Assembly: GCA_045545875.1 (NCBI GenBank)
Contig: JAZQBS010000022.1
Location: forward strand, 845-64,844
DNA from: Bacteroidales bacterium
Lineage (GTDB): Bacteria > Bacteroidota > Bacteroidia > Bacteroidales > UBA3663
Direction of reading: 5' to 3'
Length of the DNA stretch: 64,000 bases
Shown: in pieces, positions 1 to 8,227 of the stretch
How positions within the stretch are numbered: position 1 is the stretch's first letter
How the letters are laid out: the number at the start of each line of letters is the position of its first letter
Notes under the pieces: model-generated
Databases searched by the model: none
What the model saw: the letters and a program-made list of their open reading frames with translations, nothing else
Told to the model about the DNA's origin: nothing
Made by a program: the position numbers and the translations under genes

Positions 1-1
1 T

Positions 2-295
2 ATCATGAGTTTGTGGAAAGTAGATGATGATGCTACACAGTTATTAATGACCCAATTCTATAATAATTTAGCTTTAGGGAAGAACAAATATGACGCGCTC
101 CATCAAGCTCAAAATTTTTTGAGACAATATGAGGTTCTAGTAGAGTGCAATGATGATATACGACCTTCTATATCTGCTCATGCCAAAGAACAAAACCGAA
201 AAAAAACTGTAAAGAAAGAGAACAATAAAATGATAAGAAAATACAATGACCCTCAATACTGGGCTGCATTTATACTATTAGATGGTATTAACTGA
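2..295 (+). CDS. CHAT-domain (caspase-like, clan CD) protein, C-terminal ~97 aa only; the gene continues upstream of the window
   Basis: The ORF is open to the window edge. Its C-terminal signature is typical of CHAT proteins (SLWKVDD.AT..LM..FY..L...AL..AQ..L ... DPQYWAAFILLDG). Codon usage is AT-rich, unlike the rest of the window. Confidence 0.65.
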   Translation: MMSLWKVDDDATQLLMTQFYNNLALGKNKYDALHQAQNFLRQYEVLVECNDDIRPSISAHAKEQNRKKTVKKENNKMIRKYNDPQYWAAFILLDGIN

Positions 296-306
296 AATCA
301 TGAATT

Positions 307-1515
307 ATGAGACAAAATTATAAATATATAGGCATTTTCTTTGCTTGGATAAAACAGAAAAGATATGCGTTGTTCATTTCTTTGTTTAATGTTTTATTAT
401 TATCTATTTTTGCATATATATTAAATAATCAAACAGTTTTTACAGGCGAGGACTTGAATCAATTCGCTTGGATGGAATTACTAAAAAACAAGTTTGGAAT
501 TGGCAAGACAGTTGGGAAGGATGACGTGTTATTTGTGAATATTTCATACGATAAGCAACTAATTGATGTTTTTGATGAGTTCAGTATTCCTATTGGGAAT
601 ACAGACATTACTGACAGATCAAAATTACTATCATTATTACAAAGACTTCATTCTACCAATCAATATACTTATATCTTCCTTGACGTAAGATTTGAAAAGG
701 GGTTTGATGTGCCAGAAGTTGATTCTCTTCTCTATTCTGAAATTCTCAACATGAGGAATTTGGTTGTAGTTTCACACGTTGACGTAGAAATAGCAGATAG
801 TTCATTACTCAGCAAATCGGCCTATAACGATTTTGATGCTACGATTGTTTCTACAAATTTCGTAAGGTACAGTTATTCTTATAGAGAAATGATCTCAATG
901 CCATTGTATGCCTATAGAGATTTGAAAGGAATGTCCATCAATAAGCATGGAATCTTTTACTCATGCAATGGTGAATTATGCTACAATAGCCTTTTTTTGA
1001 ATTTCCCCATTGAGAAGTTCAACGAATTTGATGATAACAATCAGAAAATATATTATAATTTAGGTAGCGATTTACTTGACAATTATTCCGAGGAAGACTT
1101 AGGCATGCTGACAAATGGCAAGTATGTCGTCATTTGCGACATGGTAGAGGATTTGCATGATACCTATTCCGGCAAAAAACCTGGATCCGTCATCGCTTTT
1201 TACGCTTTTAAGGCCTTAATGGATAATAAGCATGTTGTCAACTACTGGGTATTATTACTTTTTGCATTTGTATATTTTATTATCTCGATGTTGCAATTTA
1301 GTCATCGTTCACTCATAGAGATGATACCATTTGTTCGTGACTCACATTCTGACCTCTTACATTTTGCCTTTTCGTTTGTAGAGTTTACAGTTATTCTTTC
1401 TTTCGTTGTTGTCGTTCTCAACTTAATATGGAACGTATCAACGAGTATTTTGCTACCATCAATATATTTTTCAATTCAAAAGAATATCATTAATTATAAA
1501 AGGATTATAGTATGA
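307..1515 (+). CDS. CHASE2-like membrane sensor module without a cytoplasmic output domain (hypothetical)
   Basis: 402-aa ORF starting 11 nt after the CHAT stop. One N-terminal TM helix (ALFISLFNVLLLSIFAYIL) and about 3 C-terminal TM helices flank a ~270-aa exposed domain. The start of that domain (DDVLFVNISYD..DRSKLLSLLQRL..YIFLDVRF) resembles the CHASE2 pattern. No kinase or cyclase domain follows. Confidence 0.45.
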   Translation: MRQNYKYIGIFFAWIKQKRYALFISLFNVLLLSIFAYILNNQTVFTGEDLNQFAWMELLKNKFGIGKTVGKDDVLFVNISYDKQLIDVFDEFSIPIGNTDITDRSKLLSLLQRLHSTNQYTYIFLDVRFEKGFDVPEVDSLLYSEILNMRNLVVVSHVDVEIADSSLLSKSAYNDFDATIVSTNFVRYSYSYREMISMPLYAYRDLKGMSINKHGIFYSCNGELCYNSLFLNFPIEKFNEFDDNNQKIYYNLGSDLLDNYSEEDLGMLTNGKYVVICDMVEDLHDTYSGKKPGSVIAFYAFKALMDNKHVVNYWVLLLFAFVYFIISMLQFSHRSLIEMIPFVRDSHSDLLHFAFSFVEFTVILSFVVVVLNLIWNVSTSILLPSIYFSIQKNIINYKRIIV

Positions 1516-2126
1516 GAAAAACGATTATTTCACTGTTCGCATTATTATATGTGGCAACCATATATGCCGAAGACTATAAAATTCTTCAGATGAATACACC
1601 ATCAGTGAAGATAGGAAGCCGTGAATGTGTAAAAGGTGATGTATTTTCCGATGATTCCATTATAGTTTGGGCAAAGGAGAAACAAGCTATAAAGGCTCAA
1701 AACTTGGCAACAAAAAAAATTCAATTGTTTACCGAACCCTCTTTTAGGGCTCATAGCAGTACAACTATCAAAGAATATTTCTTCAAGAAAAATCATATGT
1801 CATCACGTGGATGTCTAAGTCTGAGTGAATTGTCAGAACAGTTAAATAACACATTTTACTTATTTGATACAATACGCATTGAGTCGCCTATACCTATTGA
1901 TAGTACCAAATGTTATTATATGCACTATCATCATAATAATCACTTGATAGAAAAAGTTTTGCCATCGACAGGTGATGAATTTTTGATAGTTCGGTCAGAT
2001 TTGGAAATAGGAGATAGTACAATATACAATGATATAACTATTCAACTTTATTTCAGAAGTGATCAAGTGGAAGATGACTATTTATTGACGGACTCAATGA
2101 AGATTACATTAATTCCATTAGAGTAA
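1512..2126 (+). CDS. secreted hypothetical protein (204 aa)
   Basis: ATGA start/stop overlap with the upstream ORF. It has a clear signal peptide (MRKTIISLFALLYVATIYA/ED). No motif recognised. Confidence 0.55.
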   Translation: MRKTIISLFALLYVATIYAEDYKILQMNTPSVKIGSRECVKGDVFSDDSIIVWAKEKQAIKAQNLATKKIQLFTEPSFRAHSSTTIKEYFFKKNHMSSRGCLSLSELSEQLNNTFYLFDTIRIESPIPIDSTKCYYMHYHHNNHLIEKVLPSTGDEFLIVRSDLEIGDSTIYNDITIQLYFRSDQVEDDYLLTDSMKITLIPLE

Positions 2127-2385
2127 GTATTTGATTGTCGATAAGGTATTTACGAGATGCTTTCATTGGAGATGATTGAAGAGATAATTGATAATATCTT
2201 TCATATGACAACGGCATTCTTTGGGTAAAGCCACTTAGAATGCTTACTGAAGGATTTTCTTCGCTAACCCACCGAACTGTTTTGAGGGTCATCTGCACAT
2301 CTCTTTGGCGGTAATGCTTCAAATGACACAAGTGGAATTGTTTGAGTGCTATAATGCAAGCATTTGACAAACCCCAAATCGTCAT
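2104..2385 (-). pseudogene. orphan 93-aa ORF, possibly a degraded tyrosine-recombinase C-terminal remnant
   Basis: It lies exactly in the AT-rich/GC-rich transition. The pattern FHLCHLKHY...LKTVRWVSEENPSVSI...YERYY is loosely reminiscent of the HxLRH...LGH...Y box of integrases. A stop codon lies immediately upstream of the Met. Weak call. Confidence 0.2.
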
Positions 2386-2580
2386 TCAAAGGTTATGAAG
2401 CATTCTCCGAAAAGGATAGAGTTTTTCGGTGAAACTTGTACAAGTTTGGAGATATTTTCAGAGATTCGTTGTAGACGATCGGAGACGGGACATAATTAAT
2501 TCTGCAAAAATGAAAAGCTTATGCATTAATCTGAACAAGCCATAACCAGAGTTGAATCTAGGCGATACTTAATAAACAAT

Positions 2581-2606
2581 CCCCGACAGCCTTTCGGTTA
2601 TCGGGG
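2581..2606 (-). terminator. hairpin downstream of the small minus-strand ORF
   Basis: CCCCGA(14 nt)TCGGGG, followed on the minus strand by T-rich ATTGTTTATT. Confidence 0.35.
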
Positions 2607-2664
2607 ATTGCTTCATGACATGGGGATGTCAAGAACGGAAGGGAAGCTGCTTAATGGGCAAGCA

Positions 2665-2829
2665 TCATGCGGAGTGGCGGAAGACACCGATGTAGGGATT
2701 GGGGCTGATGACGAAGTCAGACTTGTCGGTGCTGCTCTTGTGGTTTTTTACTGCCTCGGCGATCTTATGGCCGACATAGAGACTTGCGGAGAAAAGGATC
2801 ACTGTAGTGAAGAATGCGATTGCGTACAT
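2665..2829 (-). CDS. small single-pass membrane protein, 54 aa (below the ORF-track cutoff)
   Basis: Hand translation: MYAIAFFTTVILFSASLYVGHKIAEAVKNHKSSTDKSDFVISPNPYIGVFRHSA. It has an ATG start, a TAnnTTTG box about 95 nt upstream, an AT-word leader and a downstream hairpin. The 81-aa plus-strand ORF 2608..2853 overlaps it on the opposite strand. Confidence 0.35.
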   Translation of the reverse strand: MYAIAFFTTVILFSASLYVGHKIAEAVKNHKSSTDKSDFVISPNPYIGVFRHSA

Positions 2830-2922
2830 AGTTGTATATTTTTTAATTGTTAATATTATTATTTTTTGTTTTTGTCTCGAAAATCAATTGTTAATTGTTC
2901 ATTGATTTTCATTTTGACACCG

Positions 2923-2930
2923 CAAAGGTA
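2923..2930 (-). promoter_or_regulatory. Bacteroidota -7 promoter box (TACCTTTG on the minus strand)
   Basis: Exact match to the TAnnTTTG consensus. It points at the small ORF 2829..2665. Confidence 0.4.
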
Positions 2931-3119
2931 GGCCCTTTTCTGCACGCCTGCAAGTTTTTCTCCATCTATTTGACGAGTATATGGCGACAGAGGAGCGAAT
3001 GCGCGACAGATGGGAAGAGACGGCTTAAATCTTGTCGCACAAGAACAAATTTTTTGCAAAAAGATGGCGTGATGATGAAGAAAAATGCAGAAAGGTTTGG
3101 AGATGTCGGGAAATAGTCC

Positions 3120-3127
3120 TATTTTTG
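3120..3127 (+). promoter_or_regulatory. Bacteroidota -7 promoter box (TATTTTTG)
   Basis: Exact TAnnTTTG match 138 nt upstream of the 3265 ATG. A T6 run at 3194-3199 lies in the leader. Confidence 0.35.
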
Positions 3128-3264
3128 CAGTGCAAAATTCACTTTCTGCTATGGAATGGTGATTTGGTGTAAAGAACCATCCGGGTCCCGAGTTTTTTGG
3201 TCACGAATTAGATAATTGAAGAATTGTTATTGTTAATAGATTAAAAAAGAAAGGAGAAAATGAA

Positions 3265-3801
3265 ATGATAGTAGTTCATGCGAATGACCCGACGACAAGG
3301 GTGCTGGGGCTGCTGTATGAGCAGCGGGAGGATGTGGTGACGCACATCACGGAGAAGGCGACGAATGGGGCGGTGCGACGTGCACTGAGGGCGGATGACA
3401 CGCTCATGATGCTGGGGCACGGGAACCGGTACGGGCTGTTTTCGAAGCCGAACGGCAAGGGGGTGTTCGAACGACGGCTGGTAGATCACCGGCACGTGAT
3501 GTTCCTGCGCGGAAAGACATGCATCGGCATCTGGTGTCATGCTGATGAGTTTGCGTACAAGTATAAATTGCATGGGCTGTTCTCGGGGATGATCATCTCG
3601 GAACTGCAGGAGGCGATCGACAACAAAATCCCGGCTACGAAGGAGGAGATTGATGCGGAGATGGAGAAGTTCACCCTCCGCCTAAAATACTGCATCGAGA
3701 ACTATCCGCTGGAAGAGGTGCCCCAGCGAATGCTAGATCTGGACGATACGAAGTCGGTGTTGACGAGGTTCAATTACGGGAATTTGGTGTATTATACTTA
3801 G
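3265..3801 (+). CDS. hypothetical protein, 178 aa, with a minimal HG...C pattern
   Basis: GC-rich host-like codon usage, an AGGAGA-like purine tract upstream and an ATG start. A hydrophobic strand precedes His-Gly (TLMMLGHG, H52) and another precedes Cys (CIGIWC, C91), 39 residues apart. Confidence 0.7.
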   Translation: MIVVHANDPTTRVLGLLYEQREDVVTHITEKATNGAVRRALRADDTLMMLGHGNRYGLFSKPNGKGVFERRLVDHRHVMFLRGKTCIGIWCHADEFAYKYKLHGLFSGMIISELQEAIDNKIPATKEEIDAEMEKFTLRLKYCIENYPLEEVPQRMLDLDDTKSVLTRFNYGNLVYYT

Positions 3802-3828
3802 GGATTTTAAGGGATATTTGGGGATACG

Positions 3829-3864
3829 AAAAAAAGGGGCCGCAGATATCACATCTGCGACCCC
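3829..3864. terminator. bidirectional intrinsic terminator between convergent genes
   Basis: 12-bp stem GGGGCCGCAGAT / ATCTGCGACCCC with one mismatch and a 5-nt loop. The A7 run on the plus side gives a U-tract for the minus-strand fructan operon transcript. Confidence 0.6.
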
Positions 3865-3910
3865 TACCATCTTTATAATTAATACACGTTATGAAACGTC
3901 GGGGAGTGTA

Positions 3911-4085
3911 GGGTTAAGAGGGGTTCTGAAGGGTTCGAGGGGTTCTGAAGGGTTCGAGGGGTTCGAATGGTTGCGATGACATCGCAACAAACTGAACGAG
4001 GGGGACCTTTCGAACTATTCGCTCTGAGCTCTGCTCGCGTGGAGCGAAGCGTAACAACCTTTCGAACCGTTCTGAACCACGAGGG
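3911..4085 (-). repeat. long imperfect inverted repeat of 10-nt GGTTCGA/GGTTCTGA words in the fructokinase 3' UTR
   Basis: The left arm is GGGTTAAGAG GGGTTCTGAA GGGTTCGAGG GGTTCTGAAG GGTTCGAGGG GTTCGAATGG. A perfect 19-nt palindrome GTTGCGATGACATCGCAAC sits at 3970-3988. The right arm carries complementary words (CCTTTCGAAC, CGTTCTGAACC). Confidence 0.8.
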
Positions 4086-4095
4086 GAGCGAGTCC

Positions 4096-4974
4096 TTAGG
4101 CTTCCAGAATCTCCTTGGGGAAGACTGGAGTGGCGCCCTCCTGGGTGCAGACGAAGGCGCTGGCCTTGACTGCAATGCGGTGGGCATCCTGGATGCTCTT
4201 GCCCTTGAGGTACTGAGCCACGAAGGTTGCGGTGAACGAATCGCCTGCACCTACGGTGTCGGCTACCTTTACCTTTGGAGTATCGACGTAGGAAGTCTCG
4301 TTCTCGGTGAAGACGTTCGAACCTACAGCGCCACAGGTGAGGATGACGGTCTGGAGAGTGTCGAACTTGCTGATGAGCTGACGGCAACGCTCCTCGGCTG
4401 AACCTGTGAGGTGGAAGAGTGCGCTGACAATCTCGATCTCCTCCTCGTTGAGCTTGAGGATGGTGGCACGCTTCAAGCTGGCTTCGATAACCTCGAGGCT
4501 ATAGAAGTGCTGACGAAGGTTGATGTCGTAGATGCGCTCGGTGTCGGGATCCATCGTGTCGAGGAACTTAAGGATGGTGGCACGGCTCACGGGGCTGCGC
4601 TGAGCAAGCGAACCGAAGCATACGGCACGTGTGCGCTTGGCAATAGATTCGAGCTCGTCGGTCCAGGGGATGTTGTCCCATGCTACGTTCTCGCAGATCT
4701 CGTATGCGGGAATGCCATCGCCACTGAGGGTTACCTGTACGGTGCCTGTGGGATAGGCTACGCGTGCAATGCGGTTGTCGAGCTTGATGCCCTTGATGAT
4801 TTCGAGAATCTCGTCACCCAGTGCATCCTGACCAACAGCAGAGATAACGATGCTGTGCCAGCCGAACTGACCCGAGTGATATGCAAAATTGGTTGGAGCG
4901 CCTCCAAACTTGCGGCCTTCGGGGAAACAATCCCAAAGTGCTTCGCCAATGCCTACGATTAAGTCTTTTTTCAT
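4096..4974 (-). CDS. PfkB-family carbohydrate kinase, fructokinase (BT1757-like)
   Basis: 292 aa. Motifs include N-terminal GEALWD..GGAP.N and DTVGAGDSF near the C-terminus. It is the last gene of the fructan locus. Confidence 0.85.
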   Translation of the reverse strand: MKKDLIVGIGEALWDCFPEGRKFGGAPTNFAYHSGQFGWHSIVISAVGQDALGDEILEIIKGIKLDNRIARVAYPTGTVQVTLSGDGIPAYEICENVAWDNIPWTDELESIAKRTRAVCFGSLAQRSPVSRATILKFLDTMDPDTERIYDINLRQHFYSLEVIEASLKRATILKLNEEEIEIVSALFHLTGSAEERCRQLISKFDTLQTVILTCGAVGSNVFTENETSYVDTPKVKVADTVGAGDSFTATFVAQYLKGKSIQDAHRIAVKASAFVCTQEGATPVFPKEILEA

Positions 4975-4982
4975 AATATTTA

Positions 4983-5113
4983 AGGGGGATAAAGGGGAGT
5001 AAAAAGGGAGTTAAAGGGACAAATGCATTTCTTGAACAGGACCTGCTTGGACAAGCGGTAGTAACGTCCCTTTTATAACTCTTTTACTACCCTATTACTA
5101 CTCTTTTACTACC
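4983..5113 (-). repeat. structured intergenic element (purine-word arm / loop / pyrimidine-word arm), copy 1
   Basis: Arms are at 4983-5020 and 5066-5113 with a 45-nt loop. The 24-nt core CAAGCGGTAGTAACGTCCCTTTTA at 5052-5075 is identical to 6408-6431. Confidence 0.8.
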
Positions 5114-5120
5114 AATATAT

Positions 5121-6278
5121 TTAATTCTTGATATTCTTGATATAGGTAAAGAGGTAGATGACGCCGACGGCCATGACTGCTACTGCACCGGCCTGACCCA
5201 TTGCATCGCTCATGAATCCCATAATGAGTGGGAAGATGGTGCCACCGAAGAGGCCCATGATCATTAGACCGCTGACTTCGTTCTGCTTCTCGGGAACAGA
5301 GAGGAGAGCCTCGGAGAATGCCATCGAGAAGACGTTGGAGTTGCCGTAGCCTACGAGGGCGATGGCGGTATAGAGCATCCACTTCTCAGTACCGAAGAAC
5401 ATACCGCACATCGAGAGAGCCATCAGGATGACGCTGATGATGAAGAACCAGCGGGTCTTCATGATGCGAAGGAAGAACGAACCGGTGAAGGCACCAATGG
5501 TACGGAAGATGAAGTAGAGCGAGGTGGCGAAGGCTGCATCGTTGAGGGTCATACCCAGACGCTCCATGAGGAGCTTGGGTGCTGTGGTGTTGGTACCTAC
5601 GTCGATGCCGACATGGCACATGATGGCAAAGAACGAAAGGAGCACGATGGGCTTCTTGAGCAGTGCCAGGCAGTCCATGAATGACGAAGACTTGCCGCCA
5701 CTAATCTCCTCGTAGATAGGAGTTGCCCAAAGCAGGGCGGTGGAGATGATGCCGACAACGAAGTAGATCAAGAAGAGCACACGCCAATCATAGCCGAAGG
5801 ATGGGATGACCTGGGTAGCGCCCCACATGGCGAGGTAAGGAGCCATGAACGAAGCGATGGCCTTGACGAACTGTCCGAAGGTCAGTGTGGATGCCAGGTT
5901 CTTGTCACCAATCACGAGCATAGCCAAGGGGTTAATACTGGTCTGCATCAGGGCGTTGCCGATGCCGAGGAGCGAGAAGGCCACGAGCATCACGGGGAAC
6001 GACTTGCCAAACAAGGGGATGAACAGCGAAATGACAGTGACAACAAGCGAAAGGAGCACGGTCTTCTTGCGGCCGATCTTGTTCATCAGCATACCTGTAG
6101 GAACACTGAAGATGAGGAACCAGAAGAACACGAGCGAAGGGAACACGTTGGCCACCGAGTCGGAGAGCTGGAGATCTTCCTTGACGTAGTTGGATGCGAT
6201 GCCGACCAGATCGACGAAGCCCATGCAGAAGAAGGCGAGCATCACAGGGATGATGGCAAGAGCAGAGGTCTTTTTCAT
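5121..6278 (-). CDS. MFS sugar:H+ symporter (FucP/GluP-type; BT1758-like fructose transporter)
   Basis: 385 aa with about 12 predicted hydrophobic helices. It lies between the fructokinase and GH32 genes. Confidence 0.8.
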   Translation of the reverse strand: MKKTSALAIIPVMLAFFCMGFVDLVGIASNYVKEDLQLSDSVANVFPSLVFFWFLIFSVPTGMLMNKIGRKKTVLLSLVVTVISLFIPLFGKSFPVMLVAFSLLGIGNALMQTSINPLAMLVIGDKNLASTLTFGQFVKAIASFMAPYLAMWGATQVIPSFGYDWRVLFLIYFVVGIISTALLWATPIYEEISGGKSSSFMDCLALLKKPIVLLSFFAIMCHVGIDVGTNTTAPKLLMERLGMTLNDAAFATSLYFIFRTIGAFTGSFFLRIMKTRWFFIISVILMALSMCGMFFGTEKWMLYTAIALVGYGNSNVFSMAFSEALLSVPEKQNEVSGLMIMGLFGGTIFPLIMGFMSDAMGQAGAVAVMAVGVIYLFTYIKNIKN

Positions 6279-6285
6279 TTTTTAT

Positions 6286-6469
6286 AAAGGAATTAAAGGG
6301 GAGTAAAAAGGGAGTTAAAGGGGAGTAAAAAAGGAGTTAAAGGGACAATGGTTCAATTAACAATTAACAATTAATAAATAATAATTGTTTGTTTGACCCA
6401 AACTCGTCAAGCGGTAGTAACGTCCCTTTTACTACCCTTTTATAACTTTTTTACTACCCTTTTACTACC
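6286..6469 (-). repeat. structured intergenic element, copy 2 (larger loop containing TTAACAATTAA words)
   Basis: The left arm at 6286-6346 is made of AAAGGGGAGTA/AAAAGGGAGTT words. The right arm at 6422-6469 is made of CCCTTTTACTA words. It shares the same 24-nt core as copy 1. Confidence 0.8.
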
Positions 6470-6478
6470 ATTAAAAGA

Positions 6479-8227
6479 TTAAAGTTCAACAGTGCAAACC
6501 TTCACGTTGGAAAGACCGTTGCCGGTGAGGGCGTTGTAAGGAGTCTTGGGGAAGACGAGGTTGGTCATCGAGGCACGACCGCCATCGACATACATCTCGA
6601 TGGAGCAGATGTCCATCCAAAGCTGCACGTGATAGGTGTTCTTCTTGCCGCAGATCTGCTCAACAGGAATCCATGTGCCGCTGTTGGTGCCCATAGCTGG
6701 CTTGGGATCGTAGGTCTCGGGAGCGAAAGCGTCGTTGGGGATGATGCCCGAACGCGAGCGGTCCATGATGAGACGGCCGGCCTTGCAAGCGAAGAAGACT
6801 TCCTCACCCTCGTTGTTGGTGAGCGAGAAGGTGCTGCCGTTCTTGACATCCATGTCGATGACGAGCTGAGCCTTGTTGTCACCAAGCTTGATGGTCTTGC
6901 CTTCGGTGGTGAACTCGGCGGGCTTCACCTGAGCGAGGATTTCATCGACGGGCTTCTGGCCTACGTAAACCTCCTTGCCCTGCTGGAAGGCGAAGAGCTG
7001 GCGAGGCATACCCATCTGCGAACGATACTGACGAGTGGGGAGGTCGTTGGCATACTGCCAGTTGCTCATCCACGGGATGCTGATGATGCGGCCCTTGGGC
7101 TCGTTGCTGAAGGTAACGGCTGCATAGTGGTCCTTGCCCCAGTCGAGCCACTTGACGGTCTCCTTCGGGTTGTCGCACTTGAACTCCTTGCCGTCGAAAG
7201 TGCCTACGAAATATTCGCTGGCAGAGCCACCGAACCAGCAGCCTGGGTTGACGTTGACGATCATCACATACTTCTTCAGGTTGGTACCCTCAACAGGGAG
7301 CTCGAAGAAGTCGGGGCACTCGAACATACGAGGCTTGGCACCGTAACCGTCGCCGAAAGCGCTGACATAGGTCCAGTCGTGGAGGTTGTCGGAGCAGAAG
7401 AACTGCATCTCGTTGTCGGCAGAAATGATGACATAGTATTTGCCATTGTACTCGAAGAGCTTGGGGTCGCGGAAGTCGTTGCGGCCGTCGGCAGCCACGA
7501 TGCGTGGGTTGTCGACGAACTTGGTGTAGGTGCGGCCACCATCAACACTCCATGCGCCTGACTGTACCTGAGCACGACCTGCAGAGGTGTAGTAGCTGTA
7601 GATGGTGTCACCCTTTACGATGCTCGAACCAGAGAAGATCTGACCGAGGGTGTCGCGTACGATGGCTGGTGGAAGTTCGGTCCAGTGCACCATGTCGGGG
7701 CTCACGGTGTGACCCCAGTGCATGTTGCCCCACTTGCTGCCGTAGGGGTTGTACTGGTAGAAGAGATGATACTCACCATCCTTGTAGGTCATACCGTTGG
7801 GGTCGTTCATCCAGCCATAGGCGGGGCTGAAGTGGTAGGCGGGACGATAGTATTCGCGGTTGGTGGTGTCGAATTCGTCGCTGAGCTCCAGACGGGAAAG
7901 AGCGAGGGCGCCAGCGGGGAGGTTCTTGATCTCGACGCAAGCCTTCTTGCCTGCGGGCAGCGCCATGGGGACATAGTAATCGATGGTATCGATGGCCAGA
8001 CGAACGTCCATCCAAACGTCGGCTTCATCGCCGGTGCTGACACGCACCAGGGCCTCGCCCTTATCCTCCTCGATAGGAAGGAGTATGTAGCGGGTAGGGT
8101 TGGTCACATCGACAACGGTCACGTCGCCTTGCTGAGAAACGGTAAACGAAGGGCCAGCGGGCTGGCTGTTGCAAGCTGCGAGCATCAGGCCTGCACTTGC
8201 TGCGATCAGAAGATGTTGAATTTTCAT
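6479..8227 (-). CDS. GH32 beta-fructofuranosidase / exo-fructanase lipoprotein (BT1759-like)
   Basis: Canonical GH32 motifs are present: WMNDPNG, FRDPKLF and MFECPDFF. The lipobox is MLAAC. I place the start at ATG 8227; the track start at 8233 is a GTG two codons upstream. Confidence 0.92.
   Translation of the reverse strand: MKIQHLLIAASAGLMLAACNSQPAGPSFTVSQQGDVTVVDVTNPTRYILLPIEEDKGEALVRVSTGDEADVWMDVRLAIDTIDYYVPMALPAGKKACVEIKNLPAGALALSRLELSDEFDTTNREYYRPAYHFSPAYGWMNDPNGMTYKDGEYHLFYQYNPYGSKWGNMHWGHTVSPDMVHWTELPPAIVRDTLGQIFSGSSIVKGDTIYSYYTSAGRAQVQSGAWSVDGGRTYTKFVDNPRIVAADGRNDFRDPKLFEYNGKYYVIISADNEMQFFCSDNLHDWTYVSAFGDGYGAKPRMFECPDFFELPVEGTNLKKYVMIVNVNPGCWFGGSASEYFVGTFDGKEFKCDNPKETVKWLDWGKDHYAAVTFSNEPKGRIISIPWMSNWQYANDLPTRQYRSQMGMPRQLFAFQQGKEVYVGQKPVDEILAQVKPAEFTTEGKTIKLGDNKAQLVIDMDVKNGSTFSLTNNEGEEVFFACKAGRLIMDRSRSGIIPNDAFAPETYDPKPAMGTNSGTWIPVEQICGKKNTYHVQLWMDICSIEMYVDGGRASMTNLVFPKTPYNALTGNGLSNVKVCTVEL

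Follow-up and report, generated by a model that had tools for sequence, protein, structure and literature searches.

CHASE2 is among the commonest extracytoplasmic sensor domains of bacteria, and both its ligand and its structure are still unknown. Its published topology comprises one transmembrane (TM) helix before and three after an external domain (PMC3501461, PMC5192318). Bacterial caspase-like proteases have mostly been viewed as cytoplasmic effectors of death or defence. The two meet in caspase-CHASE2 fusions, described as metacaspase-CHASE2 in Trichodesmium erythraeum (PMC2853523, PMC3501461) and as EACC2-caspase-CHASE2 (PMC8195603). Genomic island 15 of Psychroflexus torquis carries metacaspases, a stand-alone CHASE2-family protein and secreted proteins (PMC3914696); the “BiofilmReg” operon of Burkholderia encodes a CHASE2 histidine kinase and a signal-peptide LysM-FecR protein (PMC5192318); and DdvA of Myxococcus xanthus is a periplasmic tetratricopeptide repeat (TPR)-CHAT protein used in transmembrane signalling (PMC11506125). 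Here we analyze a trio of genes, encoding a CHAT protease, a CHASE2-like membrane protein and a small secreted protein, at one end of contig JAZQBS010000022.1 (C22) of a Bacteroidales metagenome-assembled genome (MAG; GCA_045545875.1; 3.70 Mb in 227 contigs, 82.8% completeness, 2.1% contamination). The window, meaning the whole stretch of 64,000 nucleotides (nt) that was analyzed, spans positions 845-64844 of this contig. The sources of related loci are MAGs of rumen and gut Prevotella, Prevotellaceae and Bacteroidales, and the host appears to be a putative rumen member of the Prevotellaceae.

We lean towards the reading that positions 1-2126 of the window are the 3' end of a horizontally acquired cassette encoding a three-part protease module of the cell envelope. 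The three genes are as follows.

2 to 295 (open at the 5' end), plus strand: 3' end of a CHAT-type protease gene (open reading frame 1, ORF1), assigned by Pfam CHAT; continues beyond the contig end.
307 to 1515, plus strand: ORF2, 402 amino acid residues (aa), a divergent CHASE2-family membrane protein according to the CHASE2 matches of its relatives, hhalign and an AlphaFold2 model.
1512 to 2126, plus strand: ORF3, 204 aa, beta-rich, with two domains and predicted export, belonging to an unnamed family, from homologue alignment, an AlphaFold2 model and adjacency.

ORF1 and ORF2 are separated by 11 nt, and ORF2 and ORF3 are translationally coupled through an ATGA overlap. The CHAT frame stays open through the 844 nt of contig upstream of the window and then leaves the contig end; only the 3' part of the cassette is visible, and its left border lies beyond the contig. 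Searches of the MAG by tblastn, with full-length relatives and island-neighbor queries, revealed no remaining pieces of the CHAT gene or of the island, and no second copy of the trio was found in the genome. The start of contig C111 is also low in G+C and matches none of the island queries. An initial annotation, made from the letters of the window alone, had described three packed same-strand ORFs with this spacing, seen only in their 3' part: the first ending as a CHAT protein, the second CHASE2-like with 1 + 3 TM helices and no output domain, and the third a signal-peptide protein without a known motif. The ORFs and their spacing agree with ours, and the results given below bear out each of these descriptions; the profile and structure searches that it had proposed for ORF2 and ORF3 link the former to CHASE2 through its relatives and leave the latter without a family.

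The 97 residues of ORF1 that lie within the window match the Pfam CHAT model (PF12770) with an E-value of 1.9e-15 (57.6 bits), and the 378 residues encoded on the contig (L001:3-1139) score 175.7 bits against a cut-off of 24 (E-value 1.8e-51), covering positions 8-286 of the 289 in the profile. When the sequence is aligned with four relatives, the catalytic His (IATHGF) and Cys (LSACQTGLG) show no variation; both are encoded on the contig a short way before the window begins. Judged by profile and alignment, ORF1 is thus a complete CHAT domain with an intact His/Cys dyad. Its identity to relatives over this domain is 37-58%. Full-length relatives are TPR-CHAT proteins of 851-1586 aa with N-terminal signal peptides, and the closest of them carry TPR arrays (in L002, for example, TPR_12 is matched at 5.4e-102); a TPR part and a signal peptide are predicted for ORF1 from these relatives, its own N-terminus being off the contig. 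Against PADLOC-DB 2.0 the CHAT fragment gave weak matches only (HEC-01A at 5.2e-4 and BovA at 9.7e-3).

ORF2 itself has no match in Pfam, NCBIfam, PADLOC or PHROGs. Its relatives, on the other hand, lead consistently to a single family. CHASE2 (PF05226) is matched by 11 of 24 close homologues (best E-value 8.3e-6) and by 28 of 75 diverse relatives with 26-45% identity (E-value of 0.01 or less; best 7.1e-11), and it is the sole recurring family among the relatives scanned. One of them, L055:1045-2274, which is 34% identical to ORF2, exceeds the CHASE2 gathering score (32.6 versus 26.3 bits), and the ORF2 family aligns with it end to end in hhalign (probability 100%, E-value 3e-65). These comparisons identify ORF2 as CHASE2-like through remote homology at the sequence level, not through a direct match. 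A profile search covering 1.84 billion representatives of clusters at 50% identity showed that the ORF2 family comprises 888 clusters at an E-value of 1e-3 or less, 445 of which reach 1e-30 or less. Most of the 150 best representatives are stand-alone proteins of 380-440 aa, and the members that bear a name are called “hypothetical protein”.

The AlphaFold2 model of ORF2 (mean predicted local distance difference test score, pLDDT, 81.1) shows helices at residues 19-41, 313-331, 349-375 and 382-401, with an alpha/beta domain of about 270 aa between TM1 and TM2. Such a layout is that of CHASE2, in which an extracytoplasmic domain of about 250-300 aa is preceded by a single TM helix and followed by three. 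Since the N-terminus and the C-terminal tail are both rich in Lys and Arg, both ends are predicted to be cytoplasmic and the domain periplasmic. The protein stops about 10 residues past TM4 with no further domain, and thus lacks the kinase, cyclase or GGDEF/EAL output of classical CHASE2 receptors. No solved relative of ORF2 was found in the PDB by sequence or fold searches. Over the 75 relatives, polar residues D82, T102, R104, D126, D139, H284 and T286 are near-invariant and D282 is invariant; in the model they follow predicted beta-strands, as they would in a Rossmann-like domain with a pocket for a ligand or for catalysis, which makes them a candidate site.

ORF3 begins with a signal-type helix followed by ..IYA|ED. 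Its 33 homologues show an N-terminal domain (residues 20-75) that is much more conserved than the variable C-terminal domain, and the AlphaFold2 model (mean pLDDT 83.8) contains a disordered linker at residues 95-101 (pLDDT below 50). No Pfam family recurs among 27 members and five distant or fused members at an E-value of 1 or less, and searches of PADLOC and PHROGs gave no match. The sequence search of the PDB found no significant relative, and the fold search found nothing significant either, only weak Ig-like matches with E-values above 3e-3. An identity as FecR (PF04773) was ruled out, with no Pfam signal in the 32 members and no FecR-like fold; a regular-expression search of the genome for FecR anti-sigma proteins, intended for a comparison profile, found none. 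The same 27 and five members also gave no match to DUF928 or to another family that bears a name. In the Prevotella clade, Ser97 and Arg99 of the linker (window 1794-1814) are invariant, and the linker coincides with the point at which an 899-aa fusion protein described below (P0270) switches from the ORF3-N-like domain to a caspase. The conservation together with this coincidence suggests, speculatively and from sequence comparison, that the linker might be a candidate processing site.

The coupling of the three genes recurs well beyond this genome. We collected 51 related loci from exact-protein look-ups, four reference MAGs and 41 metagenome contigs, some of which are near-duplicates. An ORF3-like gene lies directly 3' of the ORF2-like gene in all 43 loci where 500 nt or more were available to hold one. 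Of the 32 loci that reach 1300 nt or farther upstream, 31 have a linked caspase-fold protease, which is of the CHAT type or, in the distant versions, Peptidase_C14. The lone protease-less locus stops short of where the L009-type order would put the protease. Gene order is either CHAT-ORF2-ORF3 or ORF2-ORF3-CHAT, and the trio genes are the only common ones among six different genomic contexts compared. These counts answer the question of co-conservation that the initial annotation had left for checking. A scan of reference genomes found nothing with a single-sequence query and four loci with a profile query.

The trio persists in distant versions. In L055-L057 (34% identity), a CHASE2 protein is followed by an overlapping gene for a small protein of 223-227 aa and then by the protease, here a signal-peptide Peptidase_C14 protein with PEGA. 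The small proteins of these C14-type trios are homologous to ORF3 (hhalign 95.5%, E-value 1.6e-8; and 87.8%, E-value 3.3e-6). The parts have also been joined in single polypeptides. A fusion of ORF2 and ORF3 of 603 aa has 19 members on many contigs, including NCBI Bacteroidaceae MAGs, and matches ORF3 in hhalign at 99.4% (E-value 2.8e-21); four further ORF2 + ORF3 fusion clusters are about 655 aa long. At the joint, an extra hydrophobic helix corresponding to the ORF3 signal peptide is followed by a full ORF3-like domain. In the 899-aa cluster P0270 (seven members), ORF2 is followed by TM5, the ORF3 N-domain and linker, a C14 caspase and Sel1 repeats (hhalign 98.5%, E-value 3.4e-15, for ORF3-N; 1.9e-32 for C14). 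Operon structure, translational coupling and natural fusions thus tie the CHASE2-type domain to the protease and to the secreted partner.

Several neighbors of related trios deserve mention. An AbiGi-domain gene and genes for two trypsin-like proteins, one with MORN repeats, precede the trio in two loci (L005:1-5419 and L010:1650-5368), as does a gene for a separate 590-aa TPR protein, all within the same AT-rich block. Immediately upstream of one C14-type trio (L056:4764-6617) are two tandem full-length sigma-70 paralogues of 285 aa with regions 1.2, 2, 3 and 4.

Every full-length protease partner examined (L002, L005, L008, L009, L010 and the C14 proteins of L055 and L056) carries a signal peptide, and in the fusions, with their five helices, ORF3 and the caspase come to lie on the periplasmic side together with the CHASE2-like domain. 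Together, the signal peptides and the fusion topology indicate that the module is extracytoplasmic. We therefore infer that the trio is an envelope system; for the CHAT protein of the window, this location is predicted from its relatives. An envelope location makes the analogy to programmed death weaker than the initial annotation implied: its identification of CHAT holds, whereas its reasoning from cytoplasmic conflict and death effectors is weakened by the signal peptides of the partners.

What we propose about contact between the parts, direction of regulation, substrate, trigger and biological role is a model drawn from translational coupling, invariant linkage, fusions and predicted co-localization. 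The ORF3 N-domain would dock on the periplasmic CHASE2-like domain of ORF2, making ORF3 a periplasmic adaptor or a substrate. The ORF2/ORF3 pair would act as receptor and adaptor, tethering or gating the TPR-CHAT protease at the inner membrane, and the TPR array (Sel1 or PEGA in other versions) may select a protein ligand or substrate. The output would be regulated periplasmic proteolysis with no cytoplasmic second messenger; possible substrates are ORF3 itself, some other protein of the envelope and a foreign protein arriving from outside. More tentatively, the trio might exemplify a widespread, so far undescribed “outside-only” class of caspase systems, in which CHASE2 and an ORF3-family adaptor control an exported CHAT or C14 protease and both sensing and response are periplasmic.

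A number of points weigh against this reading. The support for all three members comes from sequence and models. ORF2 has no Pfam CHASE2 match even at an E-value of 1 or less, and, with no cytoplasmic output, the model does not explain what “sensing” would achieve. The N-terminus of ORF1 is missing, and its signal peptide is predicted from relatives that are 37-58% identical over CHAT. Signal peptides were called by inspection and hydropathy. The linker Ser-x-Arg is weakened as a universal cleavage site by a change of Arg to His in the 603-aa fusion cluster. Finally, the continuity of the AT-rich end with the contig rests on the assembly and on recurrence in other Prevotellaceae contigs.

The composition of the locus differs sharply from that of the genome. 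In 300-nt windows, G+C is 0.27-0.37 over positions 1-2400, 0.43-0.47 at 2401-2850, 0.38-0.40 in the intergenic region 2851-3300 and at least 0.50 from about 3150; beyond 4 kb, every 2-kb window is at 0.48-0.585, and the genome mean is 0.514. Genome-wide, values below 0.38 are seen in 17 of 3365 2-kb windows, three of which are the AT-rich patch. G+C at third codon positions (GC3) is 0.27 for CHAT, 0.34 for ORF2 and 0.29 for ORF3, against a mean of 0.62 (standard deviation 0.087) for 1910 long ORFs of the genome, of which 0.2% have values below 0.30. In composition and codon usage the patch is therefore atypical in the manner of a laterally acquired island, and the AT-richness that the initial annotation had noted from spot counts persists in a full G+C and codon-usage profile (27-37% G+C in 1-2400 versus 51% for the genome). 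The trios of L002, L005 and L010 are similarly AT-rich within contigs of 50-62% G+C. In two Prevotella lineages (L008 and L009), the trio has host-like G+C and is found among rsfS, ftsH and cdsA.

Exact-sequence look-ups with the flanking genes gave no match; seven conspecific contigs (L012-L018) were reached via homologues (87-89% identity) of the flanking 178-aa gene. Their pfkB, MFS and GH32 genes show 97-98% nucleotide identity to positions 4083-7000 of the window, and their blastn alignments to the window start at 3171-3177. The trio is absent from all seven, a presence/absence polymorphism; left of about 3171 these contigs carry genes for a 400-aa WG-repeat protein, an ADP-ribosylglycohydrolase and Peptidase_C10 + LRR_5, Peptidase_C39_2/RyR, PP2C and Peptidase_C92 proteins. 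This different cargo indicates that the patch sits in a strain-variable hotspot. Its absence from conspecific strains with nearly identical flanks and the real shift in composition justify calling it foreign, as had been suggested from the letters alone. Between the trio and the genes shared by conspecific strains the window contains the following features.

2127 to 2570, no strand: transition zone formed by the non-coding tail of the acquired segment, AT-rich to intermediate in composition (G+C 0.32-0.39).
2571 to 3170, no strand: strain-specific spacer of host type, outside the module, with diverged copies in the same genome and none in the conspecific contigs.
3171 to 3264, plus strand: point at which synteny resumes by blastn to L012-L018, with a conserved element of about 55 nt (3176-3230).
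3265 to 3801, plus strand: flank gene for a 178-aa protein, outside the module, the first gene common to conspecific strains.

Hallmarks of mobility were not seen on the visible side: positions 1-8000 contain no tRNA or Rfam match, no recombinase-like ORF is present on this side, the left border being off the contig, and six-frame translation of 2104-2600 revealed no recognizable integrase or transposase remnant. The only ORF in the tail is an antisense one of 93 aa (2104-2385), which has no relatives and no Pfam or PHROGs match, and positions 2127-2570 show no similarity to related islands. Diverged copies (76-91% identity) of 2574-2645 and 2707-3020 were found on contigs C224, C104, C190, C193 and C28. 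The spacer (2571-3170) contains a terminator-like hairpin (2581-2606), a minus-strand ORF of 54 aa (2665-2829) and short dispersed repeats; the hairpin, the 54-aa ORF and the region upstream of it resemble a small dispersed gene or repeat family.

In relatives, every cassette gene of the variable region has in front of it the element of about 55 nt that lies at 3176-3230 of the window (CCATCCGGGTCCCGAG...ATCACGAATTAGAGAATTGGAGAAT), with copies at L012:1117-1170 and 2923-3014, L015:3146, 4483 and 6271, and L016:7790. Its second half recurs elsewhere in the same genome, on C68, C122, C143 and C158. The element might serve as a common promoter or leader, or else mark a recombination junction. The 178-aa product has 619 homologues and no family, and its gene is 84-87% identical at the nucleotide level to the L012-L018 copies, versus 97-98% for the neighboring genes, which points to faster evolution or to exchange with the variable region.

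A possible, if not a probable, alternative is that the trio serves in conflict, against phages or between bacteria, which would be compatible with the mechanism proposed above: the CHASE2-like/ORF3 pair would detect an invader protein or envelope damage, and CHAT would destroy the invader protein or trigger an abortive response. The alternative cargo of the hotspot (Peptidase_C10 + LRR, C39_2/RyR, ADP-ribosylglycohydrolase and PP2C) looks conflict-related, and the AT-rich, laterally moving composition fits as well, as does the position of the L005 and L010 trios beside an AbiGi-domain gene and trypsin-like proteases. CHAT and caspase proteases serve known defence systems, and DdvA controls a CBASS-CRISPR island (PMC11506125). 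For the CHAT fragment, the PADLOC similarity to HEC-01A, weak as it is, points in the same direction; ORF2 and ORF3, however, match nothing in PADLOC or PHROGs, so that the trio does not correspond to a known anti-phage system of PADLOC-DB 2.0. No copy of it was found among the viral contigs searched, a toxic effector is not evident, and in L008 and L009 the trio resides at host-like G+C among core genes. The initial annotation had spoken of a candidate uncharacterized signaling or defence module. That the module is uncharacterized stands, as we found no description of the three genes in the literature, and its role may be either defence or signaling.

It is doubtful, in our judgment, that the trio is a housekeeping device for envelope maturation or turnover, or a receptor that signals to an unlinked partner, and that its siting in a variable region is incidental. 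All its parts are envelope proteins, most neighbors in related islands encode proteins that have a signal peptide and no known function, and canonical CHASE2 receptors with secreted partners do perform ordinary signaling, as in Burkholderia (PMC5192318). Copies among core genes at host G+C, which speak against a conflict role, would suit such a device. The trio, on the other hand, occurs sporadically: the pattern scan found it only four times in the reference genomes that it reached, and the conspecific strains lack it. It is present in a single copy, close relatives do without it, and no conserved substrate gene is linked to it beyond ORF3. That assembly or binning created the AT-rich end, by joining DNA of another organism to the contig, is very unlikely: the patch does lie at a contig end in a 227-contig MAG with 2.1% estimated contamination, and the remainder of the CHAT gene is absent from that MAG, but equally AT-rich trios occur inside longer Prevotellaceae contigs flanked by 50-62% G+C (L002, L005, L010), the junction repeats (77-91% identical) are too diverged for a de Bruijn misjoin, and a junction in a locus that varies among conspecific strains also explains the assembly break.

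Taken as an acquired envelope protease module, the trio is an uncharacterized and fairly widespread system that ties together known kinds, the caspase-CHASE2 associations and the periplasmic TPR-CHAT proteins, and it departs from the usual view of bacterial caspase-like proteases as cytoplasmic effectors. It is a compact three-gene unit in which a CHASE2-type domain comes with an exported caspase-like protease and a specific secreted partner, and would thus offer concrete candidate binding partners for CHASE2 and a second example of a periplasmic TPR-CHAT protein after DdvA. If an “outside-only” class does exist, CHASE2 domains may generally receive proteins or proteolytic fragments presented by ORF3-like partners, which would address the long-standing question of what CHASE2 senses. 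In this putative rumen Prevotellaceae species, the locus in addition reveals a strain-variable hotspot beside the GH32-MFS-pfkB fructan-utilization genes.

Comparison with described systems shows partial likeness in every case. The type III-E craspase (Cas7-11 with the TPR-CHAT protein Csx29) resembles the proposed mechanism in that the protease is inactive until a partner complex senses a signal; it is, however, cytoplasmic, RNA-guided and cas-linked, whereas neither the window nor any of the related loci contains cas genes and the protease partners carry signal peptides. The island of P. torquis is, like the trio, a laterally acquired cluster of caspase-fold proteases, CHASE2 and signal-peptide proteins in Bacteroidota. 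It differs in its size of 35 kb, its WD40-metacaspases and its LytTR regulator, as judged from an annotation-level description only. In BiofilmReg, a CHASE2 membrane protein is encoded beside a small exported protein that presumably works with the periplasmic domain. Receptors of this type have PAS/HisKA/HATPase outputs, a response regulator and a FecR-domain partner, whereas ORF2 lacks an output, ORF3 lacks a FecR signal in sequence and fold, and the trio includes a protease.

The caspase-CHASE2 fusions likewise couple a caspase-fold protease to CHASE2 with 1 + 3 TM helices. There the caspase forms the N-terminal part, for which a cytoplasmic location is predicted, and CHASE2 is the external sensor, whereas in the trio and in P0270 the protease is predicted to lie on the external side, that of the CHASE2-like domain, and in P0270 the ORF3-like domain stands between the two. 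The closest characterized system is DdvA. It shares with the trio a TPR-CHAT protein with a His/Cys dyad on the periplasmic side, held at the inner membrane, and the proposed conversion of an extracytoplasmic protein signal into a proteolytic event. DdvA, however, is one polypeptide that also includes an anti-sigma domain, zinc-binding and cytoplasmic, and it has a cognate extracytoplasmic function (ECF) sigma factor, while no sigma factor gene was found beside the CHAT-type trios in the related loci, and full-length relatives of ORF1 begin with a cleavable-type signal peptide directly followed by TPRs. In the trio, the protease is a separate signal-peptide protein, accompanied by a CHASE2-like partner with four TM helices and no cytoplasmic domain and by an obligatory third, secreted protein.

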